This document shows positions 7,725-58,648 of a stretch of DNA of 64,000 bases, piece after piece. Position 1 is the first letter of the stretch. The number at the start of each line of letters is the position of its first letter. The notes below the pieces were generated by a model. That model had not been told where the DNA came from. It was given only the letters and a program-made list of their open reading frames with translations, and ran no database searches. A program made the translations under genes and the position numbers. Source of the stretch: Flavobacteriales bacterium (GTDB taxonomy: Bacteria; Bacteroidota; Bacteroidia; Flavobacteriales_D; Sanyastnellaceae); contig JBIKZA010000001.1 in NCBI GenBank assembly GCA_044354975.1, positions 11,094 through 75,093 of the forward strand, written 5' to 3'.

Positions 7725-8630
7725 ATGTCAGCAGTAACTGATTTTCTTAGCAACCACTCAGACTTGGTGGCTGTAGCTACAGCAGCAGCTGCGGTTACAT
7801 TCCTTGGTTTTGAAGCGGGCTGGAATAGCATTATGGCCCCAGAGCGTAATGAGCAGGTATTCGAAAACAAAAACAAAGCATACGGAGCCTATAGAATTCG
7901 TTCTAGGTACGGCAGCGTTCTGGCTATAGCATTGTTTTCTGGTATTTTCTTGGTATCTGGTGCGCTAATTGTGCCAGTCATTTTAGCCAAAGGCGAAAAG
8001 AAAGAGAAAGAGGTGAAGGTGGAAATGAACACAGAAATGATTGCGCCGCCACCAACGGATCCAAACGAGCCGCCACCGCCACCGCCACCGCCGCCACCAC
8101 CGCCACCACCGCCACCAACGGTTCGTCAAATTCAATTTACATCGATTGTTATTGAAGAGAACGTAGAGACTCCTCCACCATCTCAAGATAAATTGAAAGA
8201 TGAAAAAATTGCAGACGAAACCACCGAAGGCGATGACGGTCCAATGGGCCCATCAGATGCAATAGCGGTTTACACTCCAGTCGATAACAAAAACGACAAA
8301 GACGCCCCTTTGCAATTCGTGCAGGAAATGCCGGCTTACCCGGGTGGGGAGAAGGCGTTGTATGAGTTTTTGTACAACAACATTGCATACCCTGAGCAAG
8401 AAAAATCTCAGAACATTGAAGGAACCGTTTTCGTAAACTTCGTTGTTGAGAAAGATGGAACACCGACTAACTTCACCGTAACACGTGGTGTAGAAGGTGG
8501 AAAAGGATTGGATAGAGAGGCATTGGGAGCTTGTAAGAAATTAGGCAAGTTCAACCCAGGAAAGCAAAACGGGGTTTCTCAACGTGTATTCTTGACCATT
8601 CCGATTAAATTTACTCTTGCAGATAATTAA
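7725..8630 (+). CDS. tonB: TonB-family energy transducer
   Basis: TM anchor, poly-Pro spacer (about 20 consecutive P) and a C-terminal TonB domain (YPGGEKALYEFL..EGTVFVNFVVEKDG). Confidence 0.8.
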   Translation: MSAVTDFLSNHSDLVAVATAAAAVTFLGFEAGWNSIMAPERNEQVFENKNKAYGAYRIRSRYGSVLAIALFSGIFLVSGALIVPVILAKGEKKEKEVKVEMNTEMIAPPPTDPNEPPPPPPPPPPPPPPPPTVRQIQFTSIVIEENVETPPPSQDKLKDEKIADETTEGDDGPMGPSDAIAVYTPVDNKNDKDAPLQFVQEMPAYPGGEKALYEFLYNNIAYPEQEKSQNIEGTVFVNFVVEKDGTPTNFTVTRGVEGGKGLDREALGACKKLGKFNPGKQNGVSQRVFLTIPIKFTLADN

Positions 8631-15021: not shown

Positions 15022-16343
15022 TGGCAGCGTCAGGGAAACAGAACTTACAACTCGACTGGGGCACTATTGCGCTCTACGGGACGTTGGTTTTGTTCGGATG
15101 GCTTTCTATTTATAGCGCTGCGTTTAATCCGCTACTGCCAAGTCCGTTCACGTTTTCCGAAGAGTACGGAAAACAGTTGGTATGGATAGGGGCTTGTATC
15201 TTTTTAATCGTAGTCATCCTTTATTTAGACGCGGAGGTGTTCAATAAACTAGCCGTTTACATTTACTTCTTTTTTGTGCTTTTGCTCATGCTCGTCTTGG
15301 TCATAGGAAAGGAAGTAAATGGAGCGAAGGCGTGGTTTGGAATTGGTGATTTTGGAATTCAGCCGAGTGAGTTTTCTAAAATTGGCGTCGGGCTATTTCT
15401 GTCCAAATTTATTTCCAGCTCCGGTTTGCAGTTGAAGAATTTGCGAATGCGTATTCAGGCTTTTGCAATCATTGGATTACCGGCGTTTTTGATTTTGCTT
15501 CAACCCGATGTGGGTTCGTTATTGACTTTCCTTGCTTTCATTTTGGTGATGTATCGTGAAGGGATGTCGGGCACTGTCCTGATCGCAGGATTTGCCAGTG
15601 TGGTCATTGGAACTTTAAGTATTGTTATTGGCGCGGGCAGAACGACTTACCCTTATTTCGGAGAGATGAGTTCTATTTGGACTTTTATTGTTTCCCTTTT
15701 CGCGTTATCAATTCTTGCTTTGATTTTCGTTCGGAATTTTGTTGTCCCACGATCAAGAAGATTGCTTTATTCTGTGGTTGTCATCTCGATGGTGCTAGCC
15801 TCGAGTCTAGCTTTTTCGATTAACTACATCGTAGATAACGTGCTTGAAAAACACCACAAAGAGCGTATTTACGTTATGCTTTCACTTCCGGTTGAACGAC
15901 AAGATGCGACCTACAATTCCGAGATGGCGAAAATTACAGTAGGCTCCGGGGGATTAATTGGAAGAGGGTTTCATCAAGGACCAATGACCCAAAATAATTA
16001 CGTGCCTGAGCAATGGACCGACTTTATTTTTAGTGCAGTCGCAGAAGAGTGGGGATTCCTTGGAAGTGTAACTGTAATTCTTATGTTCTTCACCCTTATA
16101 TACCGATTGGTGGTATTGGCAGAGCGGCAACGTTCTCAATTTTCTAGGGTGTACGGCTATTGCGTAGCAGCAATCATTTTTATGCACCTCCTCATTAATA
16201 TTGGAATGGTGCTCGGGTTAGCGCCTATTATTGGTATTCCTCTGCCCTTCTTTAGTTACGGCGGATCTTCGCTTATGGCGTTTACGATTCTACTCTTCAT
16301 TATGATTCGTTTGGACGCTGAGCGGCTCAGCATCTTTAGATGA
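15021..16343 (+). CDS. rodA: SEDS-family peptidoglycan polymerase RodA
   Basis: 440 aa FtsW/RodA/SpoVE-type polytopic protein; TAATG overlap with mrdA. Confidence 0.9.
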   Translation: MAASGKQNLQLDWGTIALYGTLVLFGWLSIYSAAFNPLLPSPFTFSEEYGKQLVWIGACIFLIVVILYLDAEVFNKLAVYIYFFFVLLLMLVLVIGKEVNGAKAWFGIGDFGIQPSEFSKIGVGLFLSKFISSSGLQLKNLRMRIQAFAIIGLPAFLILLQPDVGSLLTFLAFILVMYREGMSGTVLIAGFASVVIGTLSIVIGAGRTTYPYFGEMSSIWTFIVSLFALSILALIFVRNFVVPRSRRLLYSVVVISMVLASSLAFSINYIVDNVLEKHHKERIYVMLSLPVERQDATYNSEMAKITVGSGGLIGRGFHQGPMTQNNYVPEQWTDFIFSAVAEEWGFLGSVTVILMFFTLIYRLVVLAERQRSQFSRVYGYCVAAIIFMHLLINIGMVLGLAPIIGIPLPFFSYGGSSLMAFTILLFIMIRLDAERLSIFR

Positions 16344-16413
16344 TGACCCTTCGGGATGACCACTTCGTGGATGACGCTGCGCGATGACCCTTTGGGATGA
16401 CGCTGCGCGATGT
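16339..16413 (+). repeat. mini-hairpin array, ATGA linker (5 units)
   Basis: tga|ccc-ttc-ggg|atga|ccac-ttc-gtgg|atga|cgc-tgc-gcg|atga|ccc-ttt-ggg|atga|cgc-tgc-gcg|atg. Starts on the rodA stop codon. Confidence 0.85.
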
Positions 16414-25046: not shown

Positions 25047-25280
25047 TTGCTTTGCAAGGTTCTACGAAAGATGCAATTATAAGATGCAAGCAAGATTCTT
25101 CGAAAGATGTGTTACAAGATGCTCCGCAAGATTCTTCGAAAGATGTGTTACAAGATGCTCCGCAAGATTCTTCGCAAGATGTGTTACAAGATGCTCCGCA
25201 AGATTCTTCGAAAGATGCCTTCGGCAAGTATTTCGTTAGCGTAGCTTCTTTTGAAAAATCTTACGAAGGATCTTTCAACA
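25047..25280. repeat. mini-hairpin array, AGA linker (15 plus-oriented units incl. a 36-bp higher-order repeat x3, then about 2 degenerate inverted TCT units)
   Basis: aga|ttc-ttc-gaa|aga|tgt-gtt-aca|aga|tgc-tcc-gca| repeated. Starts 1 nt after the folA stop. Centre is cttttgaaaaatctt at 25248-25262. Confidence 0.9.
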
Positions 25281-25283
25281 AAA

Positions 25284-25622
25284 CTATTTATTCTTCTTTG
25301 ATTTAGGCTTTACGAGGTCGAAGCTGTGTTGAACAAGTTCTCTCAATAACTTGTCTGAAACGTCGCTATTTGGAACGACAAGGTTCCAATGTTTTTTGCT
25401 GGTGTGATAACCGGGTTGAATGCCGTTGTATTCTTCACGAAGTTCGATTGCTCTTTCGGGGTCGCATTTGAGGTTGATTCCTTTTTCGAAGTTATCGAGG
25501 TTAACCATAGCGAAGATTTTATTTTCAATTCGAAAAACCAAAGCACTTTCGTCGAAGGGTAAATCGGAAGTTACCTCTTCACTAATGGCTTGACACGTTT
25601 CAAAAAAATCTTCTATGTTCAT
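25284..25622 (-). CDS. MmcQ/YjbR family DNA-binding protein
   Basis: 112 aa starting at MNIEDFFETCQ (ATG 25622, 1-nt overlap with the upstream stop); YjbR-like pattern. Confidence 0.7.
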   Translation of the reverse strand: MNIEDFFETCQAISEEVTSDLPFDESALVFRIENKIFAMVNLDNFEKGINLKCDPERAIELREEYNGIQPGYHTSKKHWNLVVPNSDVSDKLLRELVQHSFDLVKPKSKKNK

Positions 25623-26548
25623 CAGTCGTAAGCTGCACAAGGAACGTGATTGCGTTCTTTGAGTCCACACGCTCTGAACCCAAGGGTTATCTCGTGCGAG
25701 TTGGTAGCGGCGTAGCGCAAGCGATTTGCTGTAATGTCGTATGCGTATGCAATGGTTAAATAGGGAAGCGCATCTAATTTCACAAGGGCAGATCCGCCGT
25801 GACCGGTTCTACCTGCTATTCCAATTGCAATTATTTTTTTGTAATCAAGCATCGCCTGTCCCTCTAATGATGGTTTGCTTCTCCCAACATAATTCAACAA
25901 CGCGGCGGGTTTGAAGGTAAAGTTATCGTTCAGCTGTATGGCTTTTCCATAGGCTAAAGTAAAGTGCCTTCTCATCTGTGTGTCTGGAAGTCCTTTTACT
26001 TTGGGTTGTGTAAGTTGTCTAACAGACAGACCGAAGAAACGGTCTTTGCGGTAAAGCCACAATCCGAAATTTACCGTAGGGGCTACGATGCTTCCCAGAG
26101 AGTTTCCAATCACCGGATCTATTTCAATATCGGGCATTGAAATTCCACCTAAACCAAGGCGGTATTGCGTAAAGCCCACACCAATTCCTGAAGACAAGGA
26201 GTAGCCCTTCGTTAATTTCATATGGTAGGCGTAGTTAGCTACGAGTGAAGTGGTACCGAACGGTCCGTAGAAATCGTTTTCCACCATAACACCGAGTCCG
26301 TGAAAATTGTATCTGCGTTGCCCGAATTTGTTATGAACGTTTACATACCCTGTTGTTGGTGCACCCTGAAATCCCGTCCACTGCTTGCGGTATCCTACAC
26401 GAGCCTCCAAGCATGGCGTGCTTCCGGTTACAGCGGGATTGTAATTTAAATAGTTGTACGTGAAATTCGTGTAATGCGGAAGCTGTTGTGCTTGCACATT
26501 GGAACTGAAGATCCACAAAAGGGCGAGTATGGTCAGGATCTTTTTCAT
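25622..26548 (-). CDS. PorP/SprF-family type IX secretion system membrane protein
   Basis: 308 aa; signal peptide then QQLPHYTNFTYNYLNYNPAVTG, the typical PorP/SprF N-terminus; beta-barrel-like remainder. Confidence 0.85.
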   Translation of the reverse strand: MKKILTILALLWIFSSNVQAQQLPHYTNFTYNYLNYNPAVTGSTPCLEARVGYRKQWTGFQGAPTTGYVNVHNKFGQRRYNFHGLGVMVENDFYGPFGTTSLVANYAYHMKLTKGYSLSSGIGVGFTQYRLGLGGISMPDIEIDPVIGNSLGSIVAPTVNFGLWLYRKDRFFGLSVRQLTQPKVKGLPDTQMRRHFTLAYGKAIQLNDNFTFKPAALLNYVGRSKPSLEGQAMLDYKKIIAIGIAGRTGHGGSALVKLDALPYLTIAYAYDITANRLRYAATNSHEITLGFRACGLKERNHVPCAAYD

Positions 26549-27558
26549 CTTAATATGGAAACGATTCCGACATACGGTGGTATGTACAAGTTGTAGGTAT
26601 TCAATTCAATGACATAGTAGTACGCACCAGTAGGTAAATACTTTCCGTTGTTTGTGCCGTCCCACGGCGTGCGATATCCGAGCGATTTAAATACTTGTTG
26701 TCCCCATCTATCGAAAACACTTACCACAGCGGCTTCGAAAACGGGTCGGTCAATTCCGCCGATTGTCCACGTGTCGTCTATGTTATCGTCATTCGGAGTA
26801 AGTGCGTTGTAAATTGAAATTGGAGATAGAATATTGACGAAAATAGGAGCGTTCACGGTGCAGTCTCCGATGGTTCCAACCGCGGAAATGGAGATCGTTT
26901 GCCCCTCTTCAGTTGGATAAAAGGTCATGGTTGAATCGCTGGTTATCTCGTTGAATTCCGGCATGGGATCCCAAGTGTAAGTTGTTCCCGGGCTTCCACC
27001 TTGCGCTATGGCTGAAGTGGATTCGCCCAAAACAATTTCATAAGGAAATGTTCCTGCGGCTATATCTACCACAGTTCCCCCAATGAATAAATCGTATGAA
27101 CAAATTCCGAAAAGAGGGTCGTGATCTGAACCAACTAGAATTACATAGTCGTGATCAGGGAGCAATCCACCCACGAAAAAAACTTCACTCGAATCTGTGG
27201 AGAAACACGGACTAATAATGTTGTACGACGCTGGCAAGCACGGGTCTGAAGAAGGAATTAGTTCAGCAACCACAAGCCCCATGGTGTTGTTCCCAGAAAA
27301 ATCATCGCAATCCTGCAGCAGTAATGCCGCTTCAAGGACACCATTTGGAGTGGTTCCAGTATGAAAGCTGTAAAAATTTGTCATTGAATAACTAAAACAA
27401 CCCGTGTTGAATGGAGCCGAAACCAATTGGTTGGTCGTAACAGGCGCATCGGCGCATAACACATTGTTTTCGACAGAGGCACACGGTTGAGCCATGGCCT
27501 GCAAGGCGACGAACAATAGAGTTATGCTTAAAAACAGCTGTTTCATTTGACTATTCAA
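26545..27558 (-). CDS. secreted protein with T9SS type B (gliding-motility-associated) C-terminal domain
   Basis: Signal peptide; C-terminus ..TPNDDNIDDTWTI..VFDRWGQQVF..WDGTNNGKYLPTGAYYYVIEL. Confidence 0.8.
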   Translation of the reverse strand: MNSQMKQLFLSITLLFVALQAMAQPCASVENNVLCADAPVTTNQLVSAPFNTGCFSYSMTNFYSFHTGTTPNGVLEAALLLQDCDDFSGNNTMGLVVAELIPSSDPCLPASYNIISPCFSTDSSEVFFVGGLLPDHDYVILVGSDHDPLFGICSYDLFIGGTVVDIAAGTFPYEIVLGESTSAIAQGGSPGTTYTWDPMPEFNEITSDSTMTFYPTEEGQTISISAVGTIGDCTVNAPIFVNILSPISIYNALTPNDDNIDDTWTIGGIDRPVFEAAVVSVFDRWGQQVFKSLGYRTPWDGTNNGKYLPTGAYYYVIELNTYNLYIPPYVGIVSILR

Positions 27559-28051
27559 AAGTAATCATGACCGATCCTTTTTCAACGGCCTGACCTGCAT
27601 TCACTGAAATGCTTTTGACTATACCGTCGGTTGGACTCTTGATAACGTTCTCCATTTTCATGGCTTCTAGAATTAACAGAGGCTCGTCTTTTTTTATTTC
27701 CTTTCCGATTTCTGCACTTATTGAAAGCACAAGTCCTGGCATTGGAGATTTCACTTGTTTAATTTTTGCGTTGTTCACGGAAGAGAATCCCAGGGAATTC
27801 AACAAAGCGTCTAACGGCTCTTCTAACCTAACCTCCGTTGTTTTATTGTTGACCTTCAACACAACTTTTTTCTCTTCCTTGGAAAGAGAGATAACCTCTA
27901 CGTTCACGCTTTTTCCCTTCCAAACGAAATGCAGATGAGCCCCATTTTGCAGGAGGTCTAGCGGCAGTGATTGGTCGTTTAACAAAACGGTTTTACTGTT
28001 TATGTTCGAAGAAACTTCGAATGCGGGAGCATTATTTACAGTGGCCTTCAT
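27551..28051 (-). CDS. biotin carboxyl carrier (biotin/lipoyl attachment domain) protein
   Basis: 166 aa with the biotinylation motif EAMKMEN in a C-terminal hammerhead domain. Confidence 0.8.
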   Translation of the reverse strand: MKATVNNAPAFEVSSNINSKTVLLNDQSLPLDLLQNGAHLHFVWKGKSVNVEVISLSKEEKKVVLKVNNKTTEVRLEEPLDALLNSLGFSSVNNAKIKQVKSPMPGLVLSISAEIGKEIKKDEPLLILEAMKMENVIKSPTDGIVKSISVNAGQAVEKGSVMITFE

Positions 28052-28095
28052 TTCTTATTCGTCTTACGTACGCGAAGCTAACTAAATTCGCGCAG

Positions 28096-29202
28096 ATGAT
28101 GGGTGTCTATTTTCATATTCCGTTCTGCAGGCATGCCTGTCACTATTGCGATTTTCATTTTTCAACGAAGCTTGATGCGCAAGAAGATTTGGTAGTAGCT
28201 ATGTTGAAGGAAATGGCGCTTCGCAAAGAAGAGTTTGTGCAGCATGAAATAAGCACCATCTATTTTGGCGGAGGAACTCCTTCGCTGCTTACTGAATCGC
28301 AGCTCGGAAGAATGTTAGAAAGCTTGGGCGAAGGGATGTCTTCGGCGAAAGAAATTACGTTGGAAGCCAATCCGGAAGACCTTACACCTGAATATTTGCG
28401 GATGCTTCAGCGTCTTGGAATAAACAGGCTGAGCATAGGAGTTCAATCTTTTTATAACGAGCACCTCGAATACATGAACCGCAAGCACACCGGTGCTCAA
28501 GCGGAAGCCGCGATCAAACGCGCGCAAGACGCAGGAATCACTAACATTACGGCAGATCTTATTTTTGGAATTCCCATTGCAACGTTTTCCCAATGGCAGT
28601 CGAATGTGGAGCAATTGCTTCAGTTGGAAATTCCGCATTTCAGTGCCTATGCGCTTACGATTGAAGAGAAAACGGTATTCGGCGCTCGGCAGAAAAAAGG
28701 AATGCTAGAGCCGCAGAAAGACGAAGAGGTTGAAAAGAGTTTTTTGTATTTGCATGAAACTGCGAAGCTTCTCGGATACGAGCATTACGAGCTTTCGAAT
28801 TACGCGAAGCCAGGCTTTCGCTCTGTTCATAACGGGAATTACTGGAAAGGCATTTCCTATGTCGGTTTCGGGCCTTCGGCACATTCTTTTTCGGAAGGAA
28901 AACGTCGCTGGAACATTTCGAATAACGCGCAGTACATTCGATTGATAGAATTGAAAAAAGAATTTTTCGAGGTGGAAGAGCTTACTGAGGTGGATTGTTC
29001 GAACGAACGAATCATGGTCGGACTTCGAACATGCGAAGGAATTGAATGGAAAGATTTTCCCGACGATTGGAGGAAAGAGAACGAACGGAATTTTTTCAAG
29101 TATGTGGAAGGAGGAAATGCAGAAATGAACGAAGTTGGATTTCGACTTACGCCGAAGGGATGGCTCATTTCCGACCACATTATTTCAACATTATTTATTT
29201 AA
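28096..29202 (+). CDS. hemW: radical SAM heme chaperone HemW (HemN-like, oxygen-independent coproporphyrinogen oxidase family)
   Basis: Starts MMGVYFHIPFCRHACHYCDF (CxxxCxxC). ORF-track start 27967 rejected because it overlaps the divergent gene. Confidence 0.85.
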   Translation: MMGVYFHIPFCRHACHYCDFHFSTKLDAQEDLVVAMLKEMALRKEEFVQHEISTIYFGGGTPSLLTESQLGRMLESLGEGMSSAKEITLEANPEDLTPEYLRMLQRLGINRLSIGVQSFYNEHLEYMNRKHTGAQAEAAIKRAQDAGITNITADLIFGIPIATFSQWQSNVEQLLQLEIPHFSAYALTIEEKTVFGARQKKGMLEPQKDEEVEKSFLYLHETAKLLGYEHYELSNYAKPGFRSVHNGNYWKGISYVGFGPSAHSFSEGKRRWNISNNAQYIRLIELKKEFFEVEELTEVDCSNERIMVGLRTCEGIEWKDFPDDWRKENERNFFKYVEGGNAEMNEVGFRLTPKGWLISDHIISTLFI

Positions 29203-29211
29203 TCTTGTAAC

Positions 29212-29997
29212 ATGAAACTAACGCTGGAAAAAGACGGGCGACGCTATTCATTTCAAACCGAAAAAGGAATGGACCTTAGCATTTCTATGAATCCAAATGG
29301 TCCGCGCGCTTGGTACGTAGCGCCTATGCGCATTGAACCCGTGCGCACTGAACAATTCTTGGGTTCTGTAGCCGAAGGAGGGGCAGTGAATTTTCGTGAT
29401 GTGTATTTTAATCCACATGGACACGGCACGCACACGGAGAATGTGGGACATATCATTGATACGGATTTCCCCGTGGTGAATAGCATTGGGTCTTCGCATT
29501 TTATGGCGAAGCTGATAACGGTGGAGTTGATGAAACAAGATGCTATGCAAGATTCTACGAAAGATGTTTCACAAGATGCTTCGCAAGGGGATTGGGTAGT
29601 TAACGAGCAAAGTCTGGAGGGTTTTGATTTGAAAGTTGAAGCGCTTATTATTCGCACAAAACCGAATGATCATTCGAAAGTGCAGAGACAATACTCAGGT
29701 ACGAATTTTCCTTATTTAACAATTGGAGCTATGCAGCGTATTGTTGATGCGGGTGTTCAGCATTTGCTCATTGACTTGCCCAGTGTAGATCGCGAGGAAG
29801 ATGGCGGAGCGTTGGAGGCACATCATTTGTTTTGGAATGTTCCGGCAGAGCCGAACTTTCAGAAAACCATTACAGAGTTGATTTACGTTCCAAATGAAAT
29901 TGCAGATGGGACTTATCTGTTGAATTTGCAAGTTTCAAATTTCGCTAACGATGCTGCTCCGAGTAGACCTATGCTTTTTGATCTAGCGGAAGAATAA
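29212..29997 (+). CDS. cyclase-family (kynurenine formamidase-like) protein carrying an in-frame repeat insertion
   Basis: HGHGTHTENVGH metal-site-like motif and family-like C-terminal half. Contains the AGA mini-hairpin units at 29538-29587. Confidence 0.65.
   Translation: MKLTLEKDGRRYSFQTEKGMDLSISMNPNGPRAWYVAPMRIEPVRTEQFLGSVAEGGAVNFRDVYFNPHGHGTHTENVGHIIDTDFPVVNSIGSSHFMAKLITVELMKQDAMQDSTKDVSQDASQGDWVVNEQSLEGFDLKVEALIIRTKPNDHSKVQRQYSGTNFPYLTIGAMQRIVDAGVQHLLIDLPSVDREEDGGALEAHHLFWNVPAEPNFQKTITELIYVPNEIADGTYLLNLQVSNFANDAAPSRPMLFDLAEE
29538..29587 (+). repeat. mini-hairpin array, AGA linker, 4 units, inside a CDS and in frame
   Basis: aga|tgc-tat-gca|aga|ttc-tac-gaa|aga|tgt-ttc-aca|aga|tgc-ttc-gca|ag, encoding QDAMQDSTKDVSQDASQ. 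Confidence 0.85.
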
Positions 29998-31420
29998 CGA
30001 AGAAGGAACTTCCTTTACCAACCTGCGTTCGGAATGCGACCTTCCCGTTCATTTGTGTAACGATACTCTTTACCATTGCCAATCCAAGTCCACTGCCGGT
30101 GCTGCGCGTAGTGAAATTCGGCATGAAAATACGCTTCGAAATTTCAGGCGAAATTCCACTGCCGTTATCGCTTATTTTAATGGTGACGTGATTTTTTGAA
30201 ATGTGCAATCCGAGAGAAATGTTCTTTTCCCGATCGGTAGAAATTGACTGAATAGCGTTTGTTAGGAGGTTGTTCAATACACGAATCACGTGCGATTTAT
30301 CTCCAAAGATGAAAGCAGTGTCGTGTGTGTTTTGATAAAAGGAAATCGTTTGGTTTTCATTTTCAAATGTTGATAGAACCGACTTCACGATGTCTTGAAG
30401 ATTCAATCGTTCGTTCTTCGATTGAGGCATTTTTGCAAAGTTTGAAAACTCTTGCGCAATGTGAGAAAGCGTATCTATTTGATCGGTCATGCTCTGCACG
30501 AATTCGTTCAAGCGTGTTTGAAATTCTTCTGGATTGTCTTGCCAAGACCGCTGCAGATGCTGCATGCGTAGCTTCATGGGCGTAAGCGGATTTTTAATCT
30601 CATGTGCTACTTGCTGCGCCATTTCGCGCCAAGCTGTTTCACGCTCCTGCTGCGCTAGCTTATCGGCGCTAGCTTCCAACTGAAACAACATGCTGTTGTA
30701 TTCTTGAATAAGTTGTCCGATTTCATCGTTGCTTTTCCACTCTAACGTCTCATTCTTTTTTCCGAGTTTCAAATGATTGATGCTCTCACTTAATTTGCTT
30801 AGTGATTTTGTGAAATCTCGTGTTATAAGGAACGCAATGGCTGCTGCTAGAATGAATAGCACAATGTACGTTGTCCCAATTTCTCTCATGAAGTTCCATA
30901 GCTTCGCTTTTTCAACTTCTTTCTTTTCGTAAAGCATTCCCACTAGGGCTAAAGGTCTTCCGTAATCATCGCGGAAGCACCAATAGGCTAAATTTTGAGA
31001 GGAATTTGTTTCTGACGGAAGGATAATGGCTTTCTCTTTTGTTTCGGTTGTAATTCGTTTGGTGAGTTCAGCGCTCAACTGCATTGGAATTTTTTTAAAA
31101 TCCGCGGTATCTGTATTCATTGAAAGGCGATACCTTCCGTCTAAATGATAGATTGTAATAAAAAGATTATTTACCTCAGAAAGCTCACAGACCTTGTCGC
31201 CTAGAAGCTGGTTTATGGAATCGGGATCGATGTATCCACCGTTTTGAATAAGGAGGTATTCGAGTGATGCGCGTATAGATTTTTCTTTTTCAGCAATACG
31301 CTCTTCGTTGAAGGTAATATCATGTTCGGAGTGGTCGAGCCACGCGACAATGCCCGTTGCTACAAACGAGATGACAATGACAGAAAAAAGCGAAACGTAT
31401 ATGCGTGAGCGTAGAGTCAT
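29969..31420 (-). CDS. membrane sensor histidine kinase
   Basis: Two TM segments flank a sensor domain; HAMP-like linker, H-box AHEIKNPLTPM and HATPase G-boxes. 3' end overlaps the convergent cyclase gene by 29 nt. Confidence 0.85.
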   Translation of the reverse strand: MTLRSRIYVSLFSVIVISFVATGIVAWLDHSEHDITFNEERIAEKEKSIRASLEYLLIQNGGYIDPDSINQLLGDKVCELSEVNNLFITIYHLDGRYRLSMNTDTADFKKIPMQLSAELTKRITTETKEKAIILPSETNSSQNLAYWCFRDDYGRPLALVGMLYEKKEVEKAKLWNFMREIGTTYIVLFILAAAIAFLITRDFTKSLSKLSESINHLKLGKKNETLEWKSNDEIGQLIQEYNSMLFQLEASADKLAQQERETAWREMAQQVAHEIKNPLTPMKLRMQHLQRSWQDNPEEFQTRLNEFVQSMTDQIDTLSHIAQEFSNFAKMPQSKNERLNLQDIVKSVLSTFENENQTISFYQNTHDTAFIFGDKSHVIRVLNNLLTNAIQSISTDREKNISLGLHISKNHVTIKISDNGSGISPEISKRIFMPNFTTRSTGSGLGLAMVKSIVTQMNGKVAFRTQVGKGSSFFVILPLDQKA

Positions 31421-31424
31421 GTTT

Positions 31425-32240
31425 TTAAAAATCGAAATTTTCTGAATCGCTGGGTTTGGTATTGGCTGGAATTATACATAGCCCAATGGTCATTGGATAA
31501 ATTTCAGTTTGAAATTTATTCGGATTGAAAAGTGGAGTTAAAGATCGCGAAGCGAAAAAAGTTAGATTCTGAAACCCAACACGTACGCACGCTTCCATGT
31601 TGAATCTATTGACAGAAATGTCCTCGCTGTTTTTTCGAATGATGGTGGCTTCACTGGTCTTATGCATTTGATACGTGCTGTTCGCGTAGCGGTAGTTCTC
31701 TTGCACACCAAATGCAACATGCACATTTTTCTTGAAGGAGTTCTTGCTATTTATTTCAAACATAATTGGAACAGAAACCGAAAAAGAACGAAGTTGGTTC
31801 TTCACGTAATCGAGGCTATCTGACTGAATAAGTATTTGGCCATCTCGATTAATAAATGTGAAATTGTCTTGAAAGCCAATCTGCTGGTAGCCCAATGAAA
31901 TTCCCGAGAAAAAACCAAATCTATTTTCGAACAACTGCTTTTTATATTCCACCAGATTCAAACGTACAGCGAACGATTGCTTTGGCTGTATTGGAAACGT
32001 TGTGTTTTGAAATGATACCAAGCCGAAATCAATACCAGTGAAGAAACACATGTATCGGATATAGTCCTCGGAGTTGTAATCGTCTTCAAGAATTTGCATG
32101 GGAGCCATTTCGAAGTCTTCGATGTTAATTTCCGGAAAAGGCATGACTGTATCGGGGGGTAGAACAACGTCAAGACTATCAGTTTGTCCGAAACAGATTA
32201 TCGCAGGGAAAAAGATGAATATAAAAATCAGTCGCTTCAT
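31425..32240 (-). CDS. hypothetical secreted/outer-membrane protein
   Basis: Signal peptide and alternating beta-strand-like pattern; terminal F. Confidence 0.5.
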   Translation of the reverse strand: MKRLIFIFIFFPAIICFGQTDSLDVVLPPDTVMPFPEINIEDFEMAPMQILEDDYNSEDYIRYMCFFTGIDFGLVSFQNTTFPIQPKQSFAVRLNLVEYKKQLFENRFGFFSGISLGYQQIGFQDNFTFINRDGQILIQSDSLDYVKNQLRSFSVSVPIMFEINSKNSFKKNVHVAFGVQENYRYANSTYQMHKTSEATIIRKNSEDISVNRFNMEACVRVGFQNLTFFASRSLTPLFNPNKFQTEIYPMTIGLCIIPANTKPSDSENFDF

Positions 32241-32272
32241 GAAAAGACAATGTGATTCAAATGTAAGCTATC

Positions 32273-32280
32273 TATCTTTG
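32273..32280 (+). promoter_or_regulatory. candidate -7 promoter box (TATCTTTG) 6 nt upstream of the rlmN ATG
   Basis: Exact TAnnTTTG match. Confidence 0.3.
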
Positions 32281-32286
32281 CACGGC

Positions 32287-33351
32287 ATGAATACAAAAAA
32301 GGATTTGCGAGAATTGAGTTCGGAAGAGCTAATGTCCGAGTTGAAAACACTTGGCGCTCCTTCGTTTCGTGCGAAGCAGATTCGGGAATGGATGTGGCAG
32401 CGAGGTGCTGCAAGTATTTCTGACATGCAGAATTTGCCCAAAGAATTACGTGAGGTACTCGATGGGAAGTACTACTTATCTAAAGCCGTCTTGCATGAGC
32501 AACAAATAAGTGCTGACAAGACCATTAAATGTGCGTTTAAAGTAGACGGAGACAAGGTTGTAGAAGGGGTGTTAATTCCTTCAACAAAGCGCATGACAGC
32601 TTGCATCTCCTCGCAAGTGGGTTGTAGCTTGGCGTGTAAGTTCTGCGCTACTGGAAGACTGAAAATGTTGCGCAATTTAACAGGCGGAGAGATTTTCGAT
32701 CAGGTGAATTATTTGCGCAACGAGGCGCTTACGCGATACAAGACTCCGCTTACAAACATTGTGTATATGGGCATGGGAGAGCCCTTGCTCAACTACAACA
32801 ACATGATGCGATCCATTCAATGGATCACCAGTCCGGAAGGACTGGGCATGTCGCCACAGCGCATTACCGTTAGCACAGCGGGGATTGCTAAGATGATTAA
32901 AAAGCTTGGTGACGATAAGGTTAAGTTTAACCTAGCGCTTTCGCTGCACGCAGCGAATGACGTGAAGCGCAGCAAGATCATGGAAATTAACGATTCGAAT
33001 AACTTGGACGCCTTGTCTGAGGCTTTGAAGTATTTCCACGAAGCAACAGGAACGCGAATAACGTTTGAGTACATTATTTTCAAAGACTTTAATGATACGA
33101 TCCAAGACGCAAAGGAGTTGGCCGAATTTTGCAAGCAGCTTCCAGTTAAAATAAATATAATTGAATACAATCCGATTGATGACGGAGAGTTTCAACAGGC
33201 CAGTCCTGAGCGTGTAGAGGCTTTTGCGAAGTTCTTGGAAAGCAAGAACATGATTGTTAATGTGCGTCGCTCTAGAGGGAAAGATATTGACGCGGCATGC
33301 GGGCAATTGGCCAATAAGAACAAATCTGCCAATGAACGTGTTTTTAAATAG
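32287..33351 (+). CDS. rlmN: 23S rRNA/tRNA A2503/A37 C2-methyltransferase RlmN (radical SAM)
   Basis: Starts MNTKKDLRELSSEEL..FRAKQIREWMW; CSLACKFCATG cluster. ORF-track start 32098 rejected. Confidence 0.92.
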   Translation: MNTKKDLRELSSEELMSELKTLGAPSFRAKQIREWMWQRGAASISDMQNLPKELREVLDGKYYLSKAVLHEQQISADKTIKCAFKVDGDKVVEGVLIPSTKRMTACISSQVGCSLACKFCATGRLKMLRNLTGGEIFDQVNYLRNEALTRYKTPLTNIVYMGMGEPLLNYNNMMRSIQWITSPEGLGMSPQRITVSTAGIAKMIKKLGDDKVKFNLALSLHAANDVKRSKIMEINDSNNLDALSEALKYFHEATGTRITFEYIIFKDFNDTIQDAKELAEFCKQLPVKINIIEYNPIDDGEFQQASPERVEAFAKFLESKNMIVNVRRSRGKDIDAACGQLANKNKSANERVFK

Positions 33352-33382
33352 TAGAGTAAACTTTTAAACTAAATATTTCAAT

Positions 33383-33751
33383 ATGAAAAAATTAATATTG
33401 TTCGCTGCAATCGCATTAGGTCTCGCATCGTGCGGCGGATGGAACGACGAGAAACGCGCAGAGGTTAAATCTGAATGCGGAAAAACGGTGGGTAGTCTTT
33501 ATTCGAAAGAGGACGGTGTGAAAATTTGTGACTGCGTTTCAGCGAAAATATCAGAGAAATTTCCGAAGGCAGATTACAAACCAAGCGATGTAAACGACCA
33601 GACAAAAGAGTGCATCAAAGACGGTAAATACATAGATATTTTAACCAAGGAATTGGAAGATTCTTTCAATAAGTTGGAAAGCGATGCTGACTCTTTAACA
33701 AAAGCGTTAGAGGATCAGATGAACGAAGAAATGAGTAAGCTTACGGAGTAA
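33383..33751 (+). CDS. hypothetical lipoprotein
   Basis: Signal peptide with lipobox LASCGG. Confidence 0.55.
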   Translation: MKKLILFAAIALGLASCGGWNDEKRAEVKSECGKTVGSLYSKEDGVKICDCVSAKISEKFPKADYKPSDVNDQTKECIKDGKYIDILTKELEDSFNKLESDADSLTKALEDQMNEEMSKLTE

Positions 33752-35665
33752 ATGAAACCATTCTGCGAAGATTTATTTGGGTACAAGCGCATTAAAACGA
33801 GCTCAGTAACCATTGGTGAATTAACCATGGGCGGCGACGCGCCCATTCGTGTGCAGTCAATGACCACGGCCGACACCATGAATACCGAAGCAACCGTTGC
33901 CGAGAGTATTCGCATGATTGAAGCCGGTTGTGAGTTGGTGCGTATTACAGCTCCAAGTAAAAACGAGGCTGAAAATCTTCGCAACATTCGCGAAGAACTT
34001 CAAAAAGCGGGTTTTAACATTCCGCTGGTTGCCGACATTCACTTCACTCCGAACGCCGCAGAGATTGCAGCGCGCATTGTAGAGAAGGTTCGTGTGAACC
34101 CGGGGAACTACGCAGATAAAAAGAAGTTTGAGGAAATTGTTTACACAGATGAATCTTACGCTGCTGAATTGAAACGCATTCGCGACCGATTCATTCCACT
34201 TGTGGAAATTTGCAAAGAACACGGAACAGCGATGCGCATTGGAACGAACCACGGTTCGCTTTCAGATCGCATTCTTAGTCGCTATGGTGACACCCCTGAA
34301 GGCATGGTGGAATCTGCCATGGAGTTCATCCGCATTTGTCTCGATTGCAATTACAAGAATTTGGTTATTTCCATGAAAGCGTCTAATCCGCAAGTGATGG
34401 TGCAAGCCTATCGTTTGTTGGTTCAAACACTTTTGGAAGCGGGCGAAGTTTTTCCATTGCACTTAGGAGTAACAGAGGCGGGCGATGGAGAAGATGGAAG
34501 AATTAAATCTGCTATTGGAATTGGCACTTTGTTGGAAGACGGCATTGGCGATACCGTTCGTGTTTCATTGACCGAAGCGCCGGAAGCAGAAATGCCTGTA
34601 GCGAAATTACTGGTCGATCGTTACGCGAATAGAACTCTGGGATTACATATTCCGGCGGAAGAAATTCCAATTGATTTTTTCTCTTATTCAAGAAGATACA
34701 CACACGAAGTTTTAAATATTGGGGGAAAGAATGTCCCGCGTGTATTTGCAGATTATTCGAACCGCGAGTCGATTACTGCGGCTTCACTATTCGCAGTGGG
34801 ATATGCCTATTCAATAGATATGGACAAGTGGAATTTGTCTGATTCGGCTTGTGATTATTTGTTTGTTGGAAAGAACACGGTAAATTTTGAAATTCCCGGA
34901 ACCCTTGGTGTTGTCATGGAACACGCAACATGGCTTCAACATAAAAATAGAGACCGTCATTATCCAGTTTTATTTGCAAGCGAATACATCCAACCGAATG
35001 AACGTTCGGGTGAGTTGAATTTTGTTGAAGTAGAATTGGAAAATTTAACAGAAGAATTTTTATCTGTGTTGAAGGCAGATTCAACGGTTGTGTTGTTGTT
35101 GAAGTCTTCGCATGAGTATGTTGTGCAGCATAGAAGAACAGCTATTTTCAAATTGATGAATCACGGAGTGAATTGTCCCGTAGTTCTTTCTTCCACCTAC
35201 AACATCGAAGAAGAAGCATACACACTTTATTCTTCAACCGACGTAGGAGCCTTGTTGCTAGATGGATTAGGCGATGGAGTTCTTATTTCAAGCAGTCAAT
35301 CTTCTTTGGCGAAATCGAATGCGATTGCATTTGGAATTCTTCAAGCAACGCGCACGCGTATTTCAAGAACTGAATATATTTCTTGTCCAAGTTGCGGAAG
35401 AACATTGTTCGACCTTCAAGAAACCACGGCGAAAATTCGTTCGCGCACTTCGCATTTGAAGGGCGTGAAGATTGGAATTATGGGATGTATTGTGAACGGT
35501 CCGGGAGAAATGGCAGATGCCGATTACGGTTATGTTGGAACAGGTGTAGGAAAGATTACACTTTACAAAGAAAAGAATGTGGTGAAGAAGAACATTGACG
35601 AAGCGGAAGCTGTCGATGAGCTTATTTCACTCATCAAGGAATATGGCGATTGGGTGGAACCCTGA
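33752..35665 (+). CDS. ispG: 4-hydroxy-3-methylbut-2-enyl diphosphate synthase (long form)
   Basis: 637 aa; GcpE N-terminal TIM-barrel motifs, an inserted domain, and C-terminal CPSCGR..GCIVNGPGE Fe-S motifs. Confidence 0.93.
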   Translation: MKPFCEDLFGYKRIKTSSVTIGELTMGGDAPIRVQSMTTADTMNTEATVAESIRMIEAGCELVRITAPSKNEAENLRNIREELQKAGFNIPLVADIHFTPNAAEIAARIVEKVRVNPGNYADKKKFEEIVYTDESYAAELKRIRDRFIPLVEICKEHGTAMRIGTNHGSLSDRILSRYGDTPEGMVESAMEFIRICLDCNYKNLVISMKASNPQVMVQAYRLLVQTLLEAGEVFPLHLGVTEAGDGEDGRIKSAIGIGTLLEDGIGDTVRVSLTEAPEAEMPVAKLLVDRYANRTLGLHIPAEEIPIDFFSYSRRYTHEVLNIGGKNVPRVFADYSNRESITAASLFAVGYAYSIDMDKWNLSDSACDYLFVGKNTVNFEIPGTLGVVMEHATWLQHKNRDRHYPVLFASEYIQPNERSGELNFVEVELENLTEEFLSVLKADSTVVLLLKSSHEYVVQHRRTAIFKLMNHGVNCPVVLSSTYNIEEEAYTLYSSTDVGALLLDGLGDGVLISSSQSSLAKSNAIAFGILQATRTRISRTEYISCPSCGRTLFDLQETTAKIRSRTSHLKGVKIGIMGCIVNGPGEMADADYGYVGTGVGKITLYKEKNVVKKNIDEAEAVDELISLIKEYGDWVEP

Positions 35666-35823
35666 CGCAGAGCGTAGATGCTTTGCAAGATTCCGTTGGA
35701 AAGATGTTGCACAAGATTCCGTTGGAAAGATGTTGCACAAGATTCCGGAGGAAAGATACTTCGCAAAAATTACCTTTTGAAAAATCTTGCATAGCATCTT
35801 GTGAAACATCTTACGAAGTATCT
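35666..35823. repeat. mini-hairpin array, AGA linker (about 8 plus-oriented units, centre, 3 inverted TCT units)
   Basis: aga|tgc-ttt-gca|aga|ttcc-gtt-ggaa|aga|tgt-tgc-aca|... cttttgaaaaatctt (35774-35788) ...tct|tgc-ata-gca|tct|tgt-gaa-aca|tct|tac-gaa-gta|tct. Spans exactly from the ispG stop to the purK stop. Confidence 0.9.
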
Positions 35824-36964: not shown

Positions 36965-36968
36965 TTTT

Positions 36969-36976
36969 CAAAGATA
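36969..36976 (-). promoter_or_regulatory. candidate -7 promoter box (TATCTTTG) 4 nt upstream of the purK ATG
   Basis: Exact TAnnTTTG match on the minus strand. Confidence 0.3.
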
Positions 36977-39806: not shown

Positions 39807-40775
39807 ATGAAAAATATTGCAGTGGTTTGTGGGGGGTATAGTGGCGAGTCAGTTGTTTCTATGCGCAGCGCGAAGATGGTGATGGAGAATATTGATCGTT
39901 CGAAGTTCGAGCCCACGCAGATTGTGATTGAAGAAAAGCGTTGGTATGCGTTGGTGAACGAAACGGAAGTTGCAGTTGATCGCAATGATTTTTCAATAGT
40001 TGTAGATGGAACGAAAACCACGTTCGACGGGGTGTTCATGATTGTTCATGGTACACCAGGAGAGAATGGATTGCTGCAAGGATATTTCGATACGATTGGA
40101 ATAAAATACACGACAGGCGATGTCTTGAACATGGCGTTAACGTTCAATAAGAAAGCGACTACACGTACATTAGGTGCTATGGGTTATCGCGTTGCGCGTT
40201 CAATTGTTATTCGCAAGGAAGAAGAAATTACAGCAGCGGAAGTGGTTGCGAAAGTGGGTTTGCCTTGTTTCGTCAAACCGAATTGTGGTGGAAGCTCCAT
40301 TGGCACTTCGCGCGTGAATGAAGAGGGCGGAATTATGGAGGCTATTTCTCGCGCAAGAAATGAAGACGAAGACATTATTGTGGAAGAATTTATATCTGGA
40401 AGGGAAGTCACTTGTGGCGTTATTGTTATGAATGGAAAGCCAACGGCCTTGCCTGTTACAGAGATTGTAAGCGAGACGGAGTTTTTCGATTATCAAGCGA
40501 AGTACGAAGGGAAGAGCAAGGAGATTACTCCCGCTCCAATTAGTGAATTTCACTACGCGCGTGTTCAGGAATTGTCTGCTCGTATTTACACCGATTTAAA
40601 TTGTGGCGGAATGATCCGCGTAGACTTCTTGTTACCCGACGAAGAACCTTCTGTAATTGAAGTGAACACCGTACCTGGTTTCAGCGCAGCCTCTATTATT
40701 CCTCAGCAAGCCGCGGTTATTGGAATGAGTAAGATGGAGTTGATATCAACCGTACTGGCTTCAATCACTTTGTGA
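39807..40775 (+). CDS. ddl: D-alanine--D-alanine ligase
   Basis: 322 aa ATP-grasp protein; GGYSGESVVS, HGTPGENG and NTVPGF motifs. Confidence 0.93.
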   Translation: MKNIAVVCGGYSGESVVSMRSAKMVMENIDRSKFEPTQIVIEEKRWYALVNETEVAVDRNDFSIVVDGTKTTFDGVFMIVHGTPGENGLLQGYFDTIGIKYTTGDVLNMALTFNKKATTRTLGAMGYRVARSIVIRKEEEITAAEVVAKVGLPCFVKPNCGGSSIGTSRVNEEGGIMEAISRARNEDEDIIVEEFISGREVTCGVIVMNGKPTALPVTEIVSETEFFDYQAKYEGKSKEITPAPISEFHYARVQELSARIYTDLNCGGMIRVDFLLPDEEPSVIEVNTVPGFSAASIIPQQAAVIGMSKMELISTVLASITL

Positions 40776-40931
40776 TCAATCATCTTCGATGATCAATCTG
40801 ACTTGGTCAGATCAATCACTGCGTGATCAATTGCTCTGCAATCAATCCTACGGAGTAATCGGAACGATTGATCGCAACGCGATTGATTCGAAGAATTGAT
40901 CTGACGAAGTCAGATTCAGAAGTACTGATTC
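40761..40931. repeat. mini-hairpin array, ATCAAT linker (6 plus-oriented units, then about 6 inverted ATTGAT units)
   Basis: tcaat|cac-ttt-gtg|atcaat|catc-ttc-gatg|atcaat|ctgac-ttg-gtcag|atcaat|cac-tgc-gtg|atcaat|tgc-tct-gca|.. then tcg-gaa-cga|ttgat|cgc-aac-gcg|attgat|..|ctgac-gaa-gtcag|att|cag-aagta-ctg. The outer units lie inside the last codons of ddl and glyQS. Confidence 0.88.
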
Positions 40932-47831: not shown

Positions 47832-47996
47832 GAATGCGTTGCGAAGGCGAATGGCTTTGCGAAGGCAACAAGCATTGCGAGGGTGAATTCTTCACGAGGG
47901 TCCTTCGGACGAGGGTTGCAAGCAACGAGGGTCTTCGACTTTCGCAATTACGCATCCCGATAGCTATCGGGAGGAATAAAGCCGAAGGTTTTCAAT
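47832..47996. repeat. mini-hairpin array, GAAG/GAGG linker (plus-oriented) followed by inverted GGAAT-type units
   Basis: gagg|gtgaa-ttc-ttcac|gagg|gtcc-ttc-ggac|gagg|gttgc-aa-gcaac|gagg|gtc-ttc-gac| then cccgatagctatcggg and aaagcc-gaa-ggtttt. Confidence 0.85.
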
Positions 47997-48969: not shown

Positions 48970-49165
48970 AATGTCTTCGACGAATGTGCAAGCACGAATG
49001 TTGCAGGGCAACGAATGTTCTCTGAACGAATGCCTGCGGCGAATGTCTTCGACTGTCATTCAACAACGCAGTTCTAATTACGAAGTAGGAATTATGAAAT
49101 AGGAATTACTTAGTTCCAATTACGCAGTAGGAATAAAACCGAAGGTTTTCCAATAACGCAGTTAA
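48969..49165. repeat. mini-hairpin array, GAAT linker (6 plus-oriented units) then inverted GGAAT/CCAAT-linked units (about 6)
   Basis: gaat|gtc-ttc-gac|gaat|gtgc-aa-gcac|gaat|gttgc-agg-gcaac|gaat|gttc-tct-gaac|gaat|gcc-tgc-ggc|gaat|gtc-ttc-gac ... aat|tac-gaa-gta|ggaat|tat-gaa-ata|ggaat|..|aaaacc-gaa-ggtttt|ccaat|aac-gca-gtt. The last unit overlaps the rlmF stop. Confidence 0.88.
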
Positions 49166-57661: not shown

Positions 57662-58648
57662 CTAAAAGGATCGAACTGCGCGTACCCTTTTGGGACTATT
57701 TTTGTTGTAACTGGCGTTTGCGTATGTAATACCTGAACCGAAATCCACTCCCCATGAAGAATCATTATCATATTCTGAACTACTCCAATAACCACTAGGA
57801 TTTAATACCGTAGCCCCAGGAATTTGTGAAAAAGTCATTGAAACATTAAAATAATTATTCCAAAGCATATTTAATTCTTGTATAGATGGCAAGTACCAAT
57901 CATTCTGACCACTGCTAGATGAATTCAAACATAAAACTGCAGCGCTACTTGTATGTCCGATTTGCGAAACAATAGAATTCGAGTTGCCTAATCCATTCCA
58001 ATAACTTTGAGCAGATAAACCTATTAAGGTGTTGTCAACATTACTCCATCCAGACGCTCCACTTAAATCATTTAAATCAACCACAAGTCCGTGTTCTGCT
58101 CCTGAATTATCTTTCCATAAATGGAAAATAACTCCTCCGCCAAATACTTCACCTATATAATGTACGAAACCTCCTACACCTGCTGGTCCTTGTGGACCCG
58201 TTGCGCCCTGTGGACCTGCTGCACCCTGAGGTCCTGACATGGAACTTCCAGAGTTTGCTGCATATAGTGCATATGGCACACTAAGTAATTGACTTGTGCC
58301 AGTTATACTGTAGCTTGATCCTCCCGATGGGTCTGTTTCTGTTTTTAAAAAATAAGGTCCGTTAGCCCAGTCAATTGTTGCGAAGTTACCCGAGACAACA
58401 GTTCCTCCACCAATTTCAATACTTACTAGACCATTGGTATTGGTTGTAGAGGTTTGAGTTTCCACGAAAATAGCAGTGCCACTTGGTGAAGTTTGTAAAA
58501 TGCTAATTCGCATTCCAACGGTAGAGCTTGTTACTAGTGCATTTGATGTATTACGAATTACTGCTTGATAGCTCATTTTGTTTGGTACTTGAGCAAAAAC
58601 ATTTGCAGTCATTAAAATTGCTGCACAAATTGTAATTATTCGTTTCAT
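57662..58648 (-). CDS. secreted protein with short collagen-like G-x-y run and C-terminal DUF1566 (Lcl-type) domain
   Basis: Signal peptide, GPQGAAGPQGATGPQGPAG, and a C-terminal ..DWYLPSIQELNMLW.. pattern. Confidence 0.7.
   Translation of the reverse strand: MKRIITICAAILMTANVFAQVPNKMSYQAVIRNTSNALVTSSTVGMRISILQTSPSGTAIFVETQTSTTNTNGLVSIEIGGGTVVSGNFATIDWANGPYFLKTETDPSGGSSYSITGTSQLLSVPYALYAANSGSSMSGPQGAAGPQGATGPQGPAGVGGFVHYIGEVFGGGVIFHLWKDNSGAEHGLVVDLNDLSGASGWSNVDNTLIGLSAQSYWNGLGNSNSIVSQIGHTSSAAVLCLNSSSSGQNDWYLPSIQELNMLWNNYFNVSMTFSQIPGATVLNPSGYWSSSEYDNDSSWGVDFGSGITYANASYNKNSPKRVRAVRSF

Follow-up and report, generated by a model that had tools for sequence, protein, structure and literature searches.

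What are four minute DNA hairpins, arranged head to tail, doing inside the reading frame of an enzyme gene? This question is raised by positions 29538-29588 of a 64,000-nucleotide stretch of DNA (the window, meaning the whole stretch that was analysed) from a Flavobacteriales bacterium of the family Sanyastnellaceae, where the hairpins lie in a gene for a cyclase/kynurenine-formamidase-like enzyme. Our answer, to which we give a probability of about 0.72, is that the segment is a local copy of a dispersed, hypervariable and lineage-specific DNA repeat family, translated as a passenger loop of the enzyme. The data comprised the 64-kb window and loci of at most 20 kb, labelled with L-numbers, and all sequences used for comparison were metagenome assemblies.

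The segment reads AGATGCTATGCA AGATTCTACGAA AGATGTTTCACA AGATGCTTCGCA AGG. It consists of four 12-nt units, each made of an AGA spacer and a perfect 9-nt hairpin (stem 3 bp, loop 3 nt), and the units follow each other at exactly 12 nt; Tandem Repeats Finder reported period 12 and 4.3 copies. The original prediction, made from the sequence alone, had described four AGA mini-hairpin units in frame inside a cyclase-family coding sequence (CDS), encoding a QD-type peptide. The sequence, the open reading frame (ORF) and the period were all confirmed, and the peptide reads QDAMQDSTKDVSQDASQ. The gene and its array are laid out as follows:

29212..29997, plus strand: host gene, a cyclase/kynurenine-formamidase-like enzyme of 261 aa (Pfam Cyclase PF04199, E 3.8e-11)
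29537..29588, plus strand: in-frame mini-hairpin array, residues ~109-125 (QDAMQDSTKDVSQDASQ), where all length variation among relatives sits
29538-49, plus strand: unit 1, AGA-TGCTATGCA
29550-61, plus strand: unit 2, AGA-TTCTACGAA
29562-73, plus strand: unit 3, AGA-TGTTTCACA
29574-85, plus strand: unit 4, AGA-TGCTTCGCA, followed by AGG

Chains of at least four hairpins with a 12-nt period and an identical spacer were found three times in the window and not once in 300 first-order Markov shuffles. A broader detector, which accepts at least four hairpins with an identical spacer of 2-6 nt between them, gave 10 chains at 7 window loci and 0 in 10 shuffles. As nothing comparable occurred in the shuffled sequences, the mini-hairpin chains of the window are not due to chance. 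At least 8 independent contigs, from JGI and ENA samples, carried the same four-unit allele.

The host gene is well preserved around the array. Outside it, the ratio of nonsynonymous to synonymous substitution rates (dN/dS) was 0.03-0.11, and this strong purifying selection indicates that the cyclase is functional. The AlphaFold2 model had a mean predicted local distance difference test score (pLDDT) of 93.6 and a predicted TM-score (pTM) of 0.90. The pLDDT fell below 50 at residues 115-124 alone, which form a loop that joins strands 96-105 and 128-130. Foldseek matched the model best to the kynurenine formamidases 4cog and 4co9 (target-normalised TM-score 0.83), and a PDB sequence search with the cyclase gave no match. 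Based on the model, the array peptide is predicted to form a disordered surface loop, and we infer that it is a tolerated passenger without a function of its own. The cyclase gene overlaps a convergent histidine-kinase gene by 29 nt (29969-29997), and other convergent pairs in the window are 1-12 nt apart (38685, 45480-45491, 55417-55421), leaving no space for conventional terminators.

Next we compared the loop among relatives. Among 118 close relatives, all proteins from lake metagenomes, the loop occurred in 77 distinct versions of 15-74 residues, mostly differing in steps of 4 residues. The close relatives were 253-312 aa long and differed in length at this loop alone, and the copy number ranged from ~2 to ~17 units among proteins that were ~90% identical. 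Distant homologues (37-49% identity) were drawn from a search of 1.84 billion cluster representatives, and had a short, unrelated and variable loop between the LITVxP strand and GDxVIT. The lineage label Sediminibacterium-like (Chitinophagaceae) rests on one homologue, named Sediminibacterium sp. by NCBI. The alignment with cyclase orthologues that had been suggested with the original prediction placed the segment as an insertion in the low-confidence loop of the model. The counter-explanation raised there, an ancestral protein segment kept in distant taxa, was not borne out, all sampled distant homologues being without the repeat. The prediction was thus right about an insertion relative to other cyclases, but the insertion is a hypervariable in-frame minisatellite rather than a fixed set of four units. 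In the cyclase array of L175 (3857-3956) there is a scaffold gap, seen as a run of N. The allele of L163 is apparently frameshifted within the array (~796-1056) and reaches a stop codon, through either an assembly error or a truly disrupted gene.

Six or seven close alleles (L142-L148, 246 aa) were free of the repeat and showed the empty site ELKN-x-x-x-D-W/L-V. The conserved Asp codon (GAT TGG) of L136 and L149 is part of the final AAGAT of their arrays, and the empty site of L144 has the native GAA GAT TGG; this gives only a hint that the array may have been seeded at a native AAGAT. In a DNA tree from which the array had been masked, empty and filled alleles interleaved, and rooting failed to polarise gain versus loss. 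One empty allele (L143) and one filled allele (L137) had identical outer 60-nt blocks, and their divergence was confined to ~240 nt (four 60-nt blocks) around the site. A recombination patch around the site accounts for the interleaving, and patch and tree together indicate that the array state moves between lineages in short homologous-recombination patches.

The variation follows the rules of the DNA and not those of the peptide. The family unit is 12 nt long, with a 3-nt AGR spacer and a 9-nt perfect hairpin T-NN-[TNC]-N'N'-A, which on the opposite strand gives C(GNA)G mini-hairpins. Hairpins were perfect in 145 of the 201 array units with 9-nt bodies, and mismatches of the G.T and A.C types, counted to tell constraint on RNA from constraint on DNA, numbered 5 and 3 and did not separate the two. 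Loops on the AGR strand were TNC in 123 of 148 units (83%), so that the complementary strand carries C-GNA-G, including the exact GCGAAGC, and the innermost stem pair was C-G in TTC, TGC and TCC stems. Some cyclase alleles also contain reversed units in frame (ACCTT/ATCTT and a hairpin), which encode QDLPQDLSQNLETGAS instead of QD-x-x-[QK]. All 38 Gln codons in forward contexts, before GAT or GGT, were CAA and all 26 inside reversed units were CAG, whereas elsewhere in the cyclase gene 60% of Gln codons were CAA. Asp codons were likewise fixed by unit orientation. The patterns S-x-K (129/133) and A/V/G-x-Q (415/417) reflect the stem pair, T:A or G:C, as it is read across the codon boundary.

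The unit length was also informative. As foreseen in the original prediction, the 12-nt period keeps the frame: 42 of 43 unit periods in CDS arrays were 12 nt, and the longer units of the in-gene array in L026 were 18 nt. In intergenic arrays only 62 of 94 periods were multiples of three, with periods of 10, 11, 13 and 14 nt common (Fisher p 2e-5 against CDS arrays), so a frame filter is seen in the genes. Between the window and L126, with a synonymous divergence (dS) of the flanks of ~0.9, the arrays differed at six sites, all of them among the 12 loop positions, and the 36 positions of stems and spacers were unchanged.

Arrays with the same grammar occur between genes, and the family and its sister families with other spacers occupy mainly 3' gaps there. 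The original prediction had noted them downstream of folA and ispG, and both are real, at 25047-25283 after DHFR (24537-25046) and at 35665-35823 after GcpE/IspG (33752-35665), the identity of these neighbouring genes being confirmed. In one frame the folA array reads QDSSKDVLQDAPQDSS, as had been stated. The intergenic arrays of the window were as follows:

25047..25228, plus strand: sister AGA array, forward arm, beginning with the base that directly follows the folA stop codon, with a 36-nt superunit TTC..GAA / TGT..ACA / TGC..GCA
25240..25283, minus strand: reversed arm of the folA-yjbR array (ATCTT units), abutting the stop codon of the minus-strand gene 25284..25622
35665..35757, plus strand: sister AGA array, forward arm, starting in the ispG stop codon, with alternating 14-nt and 12-nt units
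35773..35823, minus strand: reversed arm of the ispG-purK array, with units identical to TGCTATGCA and TGTTTCACA of the cyclase
16331..16409, plus strand: different family with the same architecture (ATGA spacer and C..G hairpins), downstream of a FtsW/RodA gene
40761..40916: third family, two-armed (CA spacer and ATC..GAT hairpins, flipping to TG), in the convergent gap between Ddl and a class II aminoacyl-tRNA synthetase
47838..47940, plus strand: array with CGAGGG spacer, in a divergent gap
48973..49053, plus strand: array with GAAT spacer and G..C hairpins, beginning 4 nt past the stop codon of a 54-codon ORF

The cyclase, folA and ispG arrays use one unit alphabet and a common superunit of three hairpins (TTC..GAA, TGT..ACA, TGC..GCA). 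The 17-mer AAGATGTTTCACAAGAT and the unit AGATGCTATGCA reappear in the ispG-purK array at 35773-35823, and in general CDS arrays and intergenic arrays had exact strings of 17-33 nt in common, those of up to 33 nt with intergenic arrays of other loci. The copy number, the reversed units, the codon locking and these shared strings, together with the 48-nt string described below, support the proposal, made from the sequence at the outset, that the arrays are generated or spread at the DNA level. The array-bearing folA-yjbR gap was also found in L142, which has an empty cyclase site, and the array system is therefore older than, or independent of, the in-gene copy.

The arrays were restricted in their distribution. 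Close loci contained 11 arrays per 100 kb, and the 178 kb of loci around distant cyclase homologues contained none. As a control set, at least 120 unrelated 12-nt repeat loci were collected by scanning a genome collection with the generic pattern AAGAT(N7)x4; there the density was ~1 per 100 kb in 852 kb. The hairpin grammar was seen in 3 of 120 among the matches listed (L023, L026, L038), with diverse hairpin units in L026 and L038 alone. Viral contigs gave no match to the superunit pattern, and neither Rfam nor the literature that was searched contained an earlier description of such arrays.

Two-armed arrays had a fixed polarity. They ran forward (purine-rich spacer, TNC loops) and then reversed (pyrimidine spacer, GNA loops), and never in the opposite order, on either strand. 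Each arm had the inverted grammar of the other, with partial complementarity between them (22 nt at 86-95%), and the element length was not fixed. The in-gene arrays of the cyclase and of a phosphoglucomutase showed the same forward-then-reversed order. The two-armed arrays were:

25047-25283, 35665-35823 and 40761-40916 of the window
1690-1846 and 4581-4720 of L174
4609-4751 of L026

Gene callers read through intergenic arrays and produce spurious hypothetical proteins of 46-100 aa (for example ...QDSSKDVSQDASALQDSSKD...), which are annotation artefacts in public databases; examples are found at L126 16467-16631, at window 47661-47963 and in proteins P0271-P0294. In L174, the 5' end of an MBOAT gene, as called, includes an AGA array of three units (9598-9660). 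An internal ATG (MVFSSAIFL...) suggests that the true start is downstream, which would leave the array in the 5' untranslated region.

A second gene with an in-frame copy was met by chance among the control loci. In L026 the phosphoglucomutase gene (PF02878/79/80) contains an in-frame array that reads SATQDANALQDAPSVQDSAKDASQD. Relatives of this protein (84-94% identity) were 578-647 aa long, varying in that loop, and both peptide types, forward and reversed, were seen here as well. The phosphoglucomutase array of L174 shares with the cyclase arrays of L137 and L140 an exact string of 48 nt, CAAGGTCGTTCCGAAGGTGCTTCGCAAGACCTTCCGCAGGACCTTTCG. The L174 locus also carries the other array families of the window, which suggests that its lineage is close to that of the window. 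The occurrence of this 48-nt string in two unrelated genes gives the strongest support for a movement of array DNA between loci, also into unrelated genes. A search with the peptide repeat for further in-frame copies, as had been proposed, was run and returned 24 short domain-free ORFs only, and 7 of the 7 inspected were translations of intergenic arrays.

How might a copy of the family have come to lie in the enzyme? We envisage that one array copy became established in the codons of the disordered cyclase loop, directly 5' of the conserved Asp-Trp-Val. Whole units (12, 36 or 48 nt) would then be gained and lost by replication slippage or unequal exchange, with the hairpins helping, and inverted units would arise through strand switching at the palindromes. 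Segments may be exchanged among arrays by ectopic copying, that is, ectopic recombination or template switching, and the array could pass between related lineages within short homologous-recombination patches. Selection would act only as a filter, leaving in genes those arrays that are stop-free, hydrophilic and of a length that is a multiple of three, while the enzyme stays functional.

Several points weigh against a passenger copy of a neutrally changing repeat. In the loci analysed no enzyme was linked to the arrays, and slippage, strand switching and ectopic copying are inferred as mechanisms. That stems and spacers are invariant between the window and L126 points to constraint on the nucleic acid, to concerted evolution or to swapping of units, rather than to neutral drift. 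Pure neutral slippage predicts neither the strand asymmetry of the loops nor the forward-then-reversed polarity. With the nearest-neighbour model of ViennaRNA, folding z-scores were -0.1 to -0.6 (cyclase array) and +1.7 to +1.9 (folA array), and the 3-bp mini-hairpins were not predicted to be stable. In addition, long arrays may collapse or break in metagenome assemblies. Since polarity, loop asymmetry and stem and spacer invariance are unexplained by a neutral model, they keep alive both a transposition and a functional reading of the arrays.

It is possible, but in our judgement unlikely, that the arrays are mobilised units of a transposable system, similar to miniature inverted-repeat transposable elements (MITE) or to doublets of repetitive extragenic palindromes (REP) known as REPIN, and that a dedicated enzyme, for example a HUH transposase like the REP-associated tyrosine transposases (RAYT), inserted the CDS copy. 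HUH enzymes read signals such as a short constant motif beside a hairpin, which would suit the units described here. The dispersed family with its common superunit also fits this explanation, as do the identical 48-nt segment in two unrelated genes and the two-armed inverted architecture, which recalls REPIN doublets and terminal inverted repeats. Presence and absence boundaries were clean: the empty ispG-purK allele reads TGACGCAGAG-G-CTAGGATA and the filled one TGACGCAGAG-CGTAGATGC...GAAGTAT-CTAGGATA. However, the target-site duplication that marks a MITE was absent when these empty and filled alleles were compared. Neither was there a fixed element length, as copy number varied everywhere; in the ispG-purK arrays the right arm and the centre were conserved and the unit number varied in the left arm only. 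The 3-bp stems are far below the length of known RAYT or IS200 substrates, and the viral contigs were negative. No RAYT (Y1/HUH) gene or other transposase was found among the proteins scanned or with precomputed Pfam hits (64-kb window and loci of at most 20 kb), most of the 57 ORFs of the window being unscanned.

It appears doubtful that the arrays are functional nucleic-acid elements, such as bidirectional terminators or insulators, mRNA stabilisers or binding arrays for a protein reading the AAGAU spacer, and that the in-gene copy is kept for a role at the mRNA or DNA level. Their placement is in favour of a function: they start at or a few nt from stop codons, the gene-adjacent arm is in sense orientation, and all four convergent gaps of more than 100 nt in the window are array-filled from stop codon to stop codon. 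Yet the other five convergent gaps, of at most 42 nt, are without an array, and the ispG-purK gap is 8 nt in L125 (16595-16615), where the array is wholly missing, compared to 145-205 nt of array in five other lineages (window 35663-35830). Folding gave a similarly divided result. The two-armed array at 40775-40920 folds arm to arm into one long hairpin (RNA -63.2 kcal/mol, z -7.4; DNA z -6.2), whereas the four-unit array of the cyclase had no significant fold, and Rfam gave no match at the arrays at gathering thresholds or even at E <= 1. The strand asymmetry of the loops and the invariance of stems and spacers where loops vary speak for a function, while the occurrence of both orientations within CDS arrays speaks against it. 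Canonical terminators, consisting of a hairpin and a T-run, were not enriched in 24000-42000 (17 vs 17.9 expected), with none of the listed sites within an array, and clusters of hairpins have been proposed as terminators (PMC8355165). A terminator within a gene would, however, be harmful, and empty cyclase alleles were under equal purifying selection.

Selection on the protein, which would make the loop an adaptive, tunable disordered linker and its likeness to intergenic arrays secondary, is improbable. The repeat does persist across lineages at dS 0.5-0.9, each orientation is always read in one hydrophilic frame in two different enzymes, and the tandem repeats of Borgs create disordered regions under selection (PMC9879509). 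On the other hand, codons follow unit orientation and not codon usage, and forward and reversed units place unrelated peptides at one site. Empty alleles have near-identical backbones, the same units are abundant in non-coding DNA, and the loop is predicted to be disordered.

Chance or an assembly or sequencing artefact has a negligible probability, because although short-read assemblies can mis-assemble repeats, as the N run of L175 and the apparent frameshift of L163 illustrate, the 300 shuffles gave no comparable chain, at least 8 independent contigs carry the same allele and all 77 variants obey the grammar.

We also compared the arrays with known repeat systems. REP sequences, bacterial interspersed mosaic elements (BIME) and REPIN are short hairpin repeats at the 3' ends of genes and in convergent gaps, occurring in clusters and inverted pairs, with several families and a copy number that varies between strains. 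The arrays resemble them in all these respects: the 3'-end and convergent-gap habitat, the clusters, the inverted pairs, the several families and the variable copy number. REPs are imperfect conserved palindromes of 20-40 nt with 5' GTAG, associated with RAYT and extragenic by definition. The arrays, in contrast, are strictly tandem and have variable stems of 3-7 bp, with only the 2-6 nt spacer constant (AGA, ATGA, CA or GAAT). Their hairpins are 9-17 nt long, and no conserved GTAG palindrome was found in them. The sister arrays lie in extragenic 3'-end positions, whereas the cyclase copy lies within a gene.

Rickettsia palindromic elements (RPE), to which the original prediction had likened the arrays, are unitary elements of ~150 bp in 10 families, each with a conserved peptide (PMC10969869). 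The likeness holds for behaviour: both are dispersed palindromic repeats found between genes and in frame in unrelated metabolic genes, with a fold-compatible peptide (PMC10969869), and the cyclase and phosphoglucomutase genes carry their arrays in frame, in the cyclase at a tolerated surface loop with pLDDT below 50. It does not extend to family membership. The arrays are not unitary elements of ~100-150 bp of an RPE family in Rickettsia, but tandem 12-nt units in 2-17 copies and both orientations, in free-living freshwater Bacteroidota, a different phylum, and the sequences are unrelated.

With coding variable number tandem repeats and Borg repeats the arrays share the head-to-tail order, a period that is a multiple of three, fast copy-number change and the disordered segment (PMC9879509), and they show the tandem units, period and copy-number polymorphism of a coding minisatellite. 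Ordinary coding repeats differ in having a local origin, no intergenic family, no hairpin grammar, no inverted units and no strings shared across genes. The hairpin clusters proposed as terminators resemble the arrays in that their hairpins, several in number, follow the stop codon directly, lie less than 15 nt from each other and have no U tract (PMC8355165). They are, however, generic sets of 2-3 hairpins, and do not form periodic constant-spacer arrays, show copy-number polymorphism or have in-gene copies.

DNA mini-hairpins of extraordinary stability are formed by the GNA triloop when a 5'C..G3' pair closes it, as in the d(GCGNAGC) hairpins of Hirao (PMC13037366, PMC3201870). The arrays contain this motif, a GNA triloop closed by a 5'C-G3' pair, from which folding would be predicted; the stability of d(GCGNAGC) is not captured by the nearest-neighbour models applied here. 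The known natural cases are single hairpins at phage and plasmid origins and promoters, not tandem arrays.

Three further candidates were rejected. A clustered regularly interspaced short palindromic repeat (CRISPR) array would have constant repeats of 23-50 nt with unique spacers of similar length between them, and usually cas genes close by. Here only 2-6 nt are constant, what varies is a palindrome of 9-17 nt taken from a small alphabet, and the called genes of the loci contained no cas domains. DNA uptake sequences are dispersed single motifs and not tandem, and for UNCG tetraloops the closing pairs do not fit.

Tentatively, the arrays could represent an undescribed class of self-propagating repeats: tandem GNA/TNC mini-hairpins with family-specific spacers of 2-6 nt, several families per genome and a fixed polarity, either copied by dedicated machinery or serving as terminator or insulator in a lineage without canonical terminators. 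If this were true, arrays spilling over into genes would repeatedly supply housekeeping enzymes of free-living bacteria with new disordered loops. That palindromic repeats colonise genes in frame has been seen as peculiar to Rickettsia. Here the phenomenon is found in freshwater Bacteroidota that are abundant and free-living, and the element is of another kind, a hypervariable mini-hairpin minisatellite. Identical DNA in two unrelated enzymes is direct evidence that a non-coding repeat can be copied into genes and can persist there as a protein loop. The arrays thus offer a tractable natural system for repeat expansion, inversion and dispersal, for the role of GNA mini-hairpins in vivo and for the origin of disordered protein segments. 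In practical terms, they yield spurious hypothetical proteins and break assemblies, and they could allow strains to be told apart very finely in lake metagenomes.

Other repeats were also observed in the window. A repeat of ~50 nt flanks a DUF6934 gene, with full copies at 47946-47995 and 48203-48252 and a partial copy at 49129-49150 (AATTACGCATCCCGATAGCTATCGGGAGGAATAAAGCCGAAGGTTTTCAA, the copies 94% identical to each other), and within it lies the palindrome CCCGATAGC-ATCGGG. Beside the GAAT array, at 49076-49109, tandem copies of the motif AGGAATTACG / TAGGAATTA follow each other every 14 nt. This motif occurs also near arrays in L174 (9715-9760); it may be another small repeat family. Matches to sigma-70-like promoters were depleted in 24000-42000 (14 vs 32.3 +/- 5.5 expected). 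Bacteroidota have been reported to use a different promoter consensus, which would fit this depletion. Two in-frame tandem repeats without the hairpin grammar were found at 8070-8117 (ORF 7725..8630; CCACCGCCA in 4.3 copies) and at 58178-58236 (ORF 57662..58648; an 18-nt unit in 3.3 copies).

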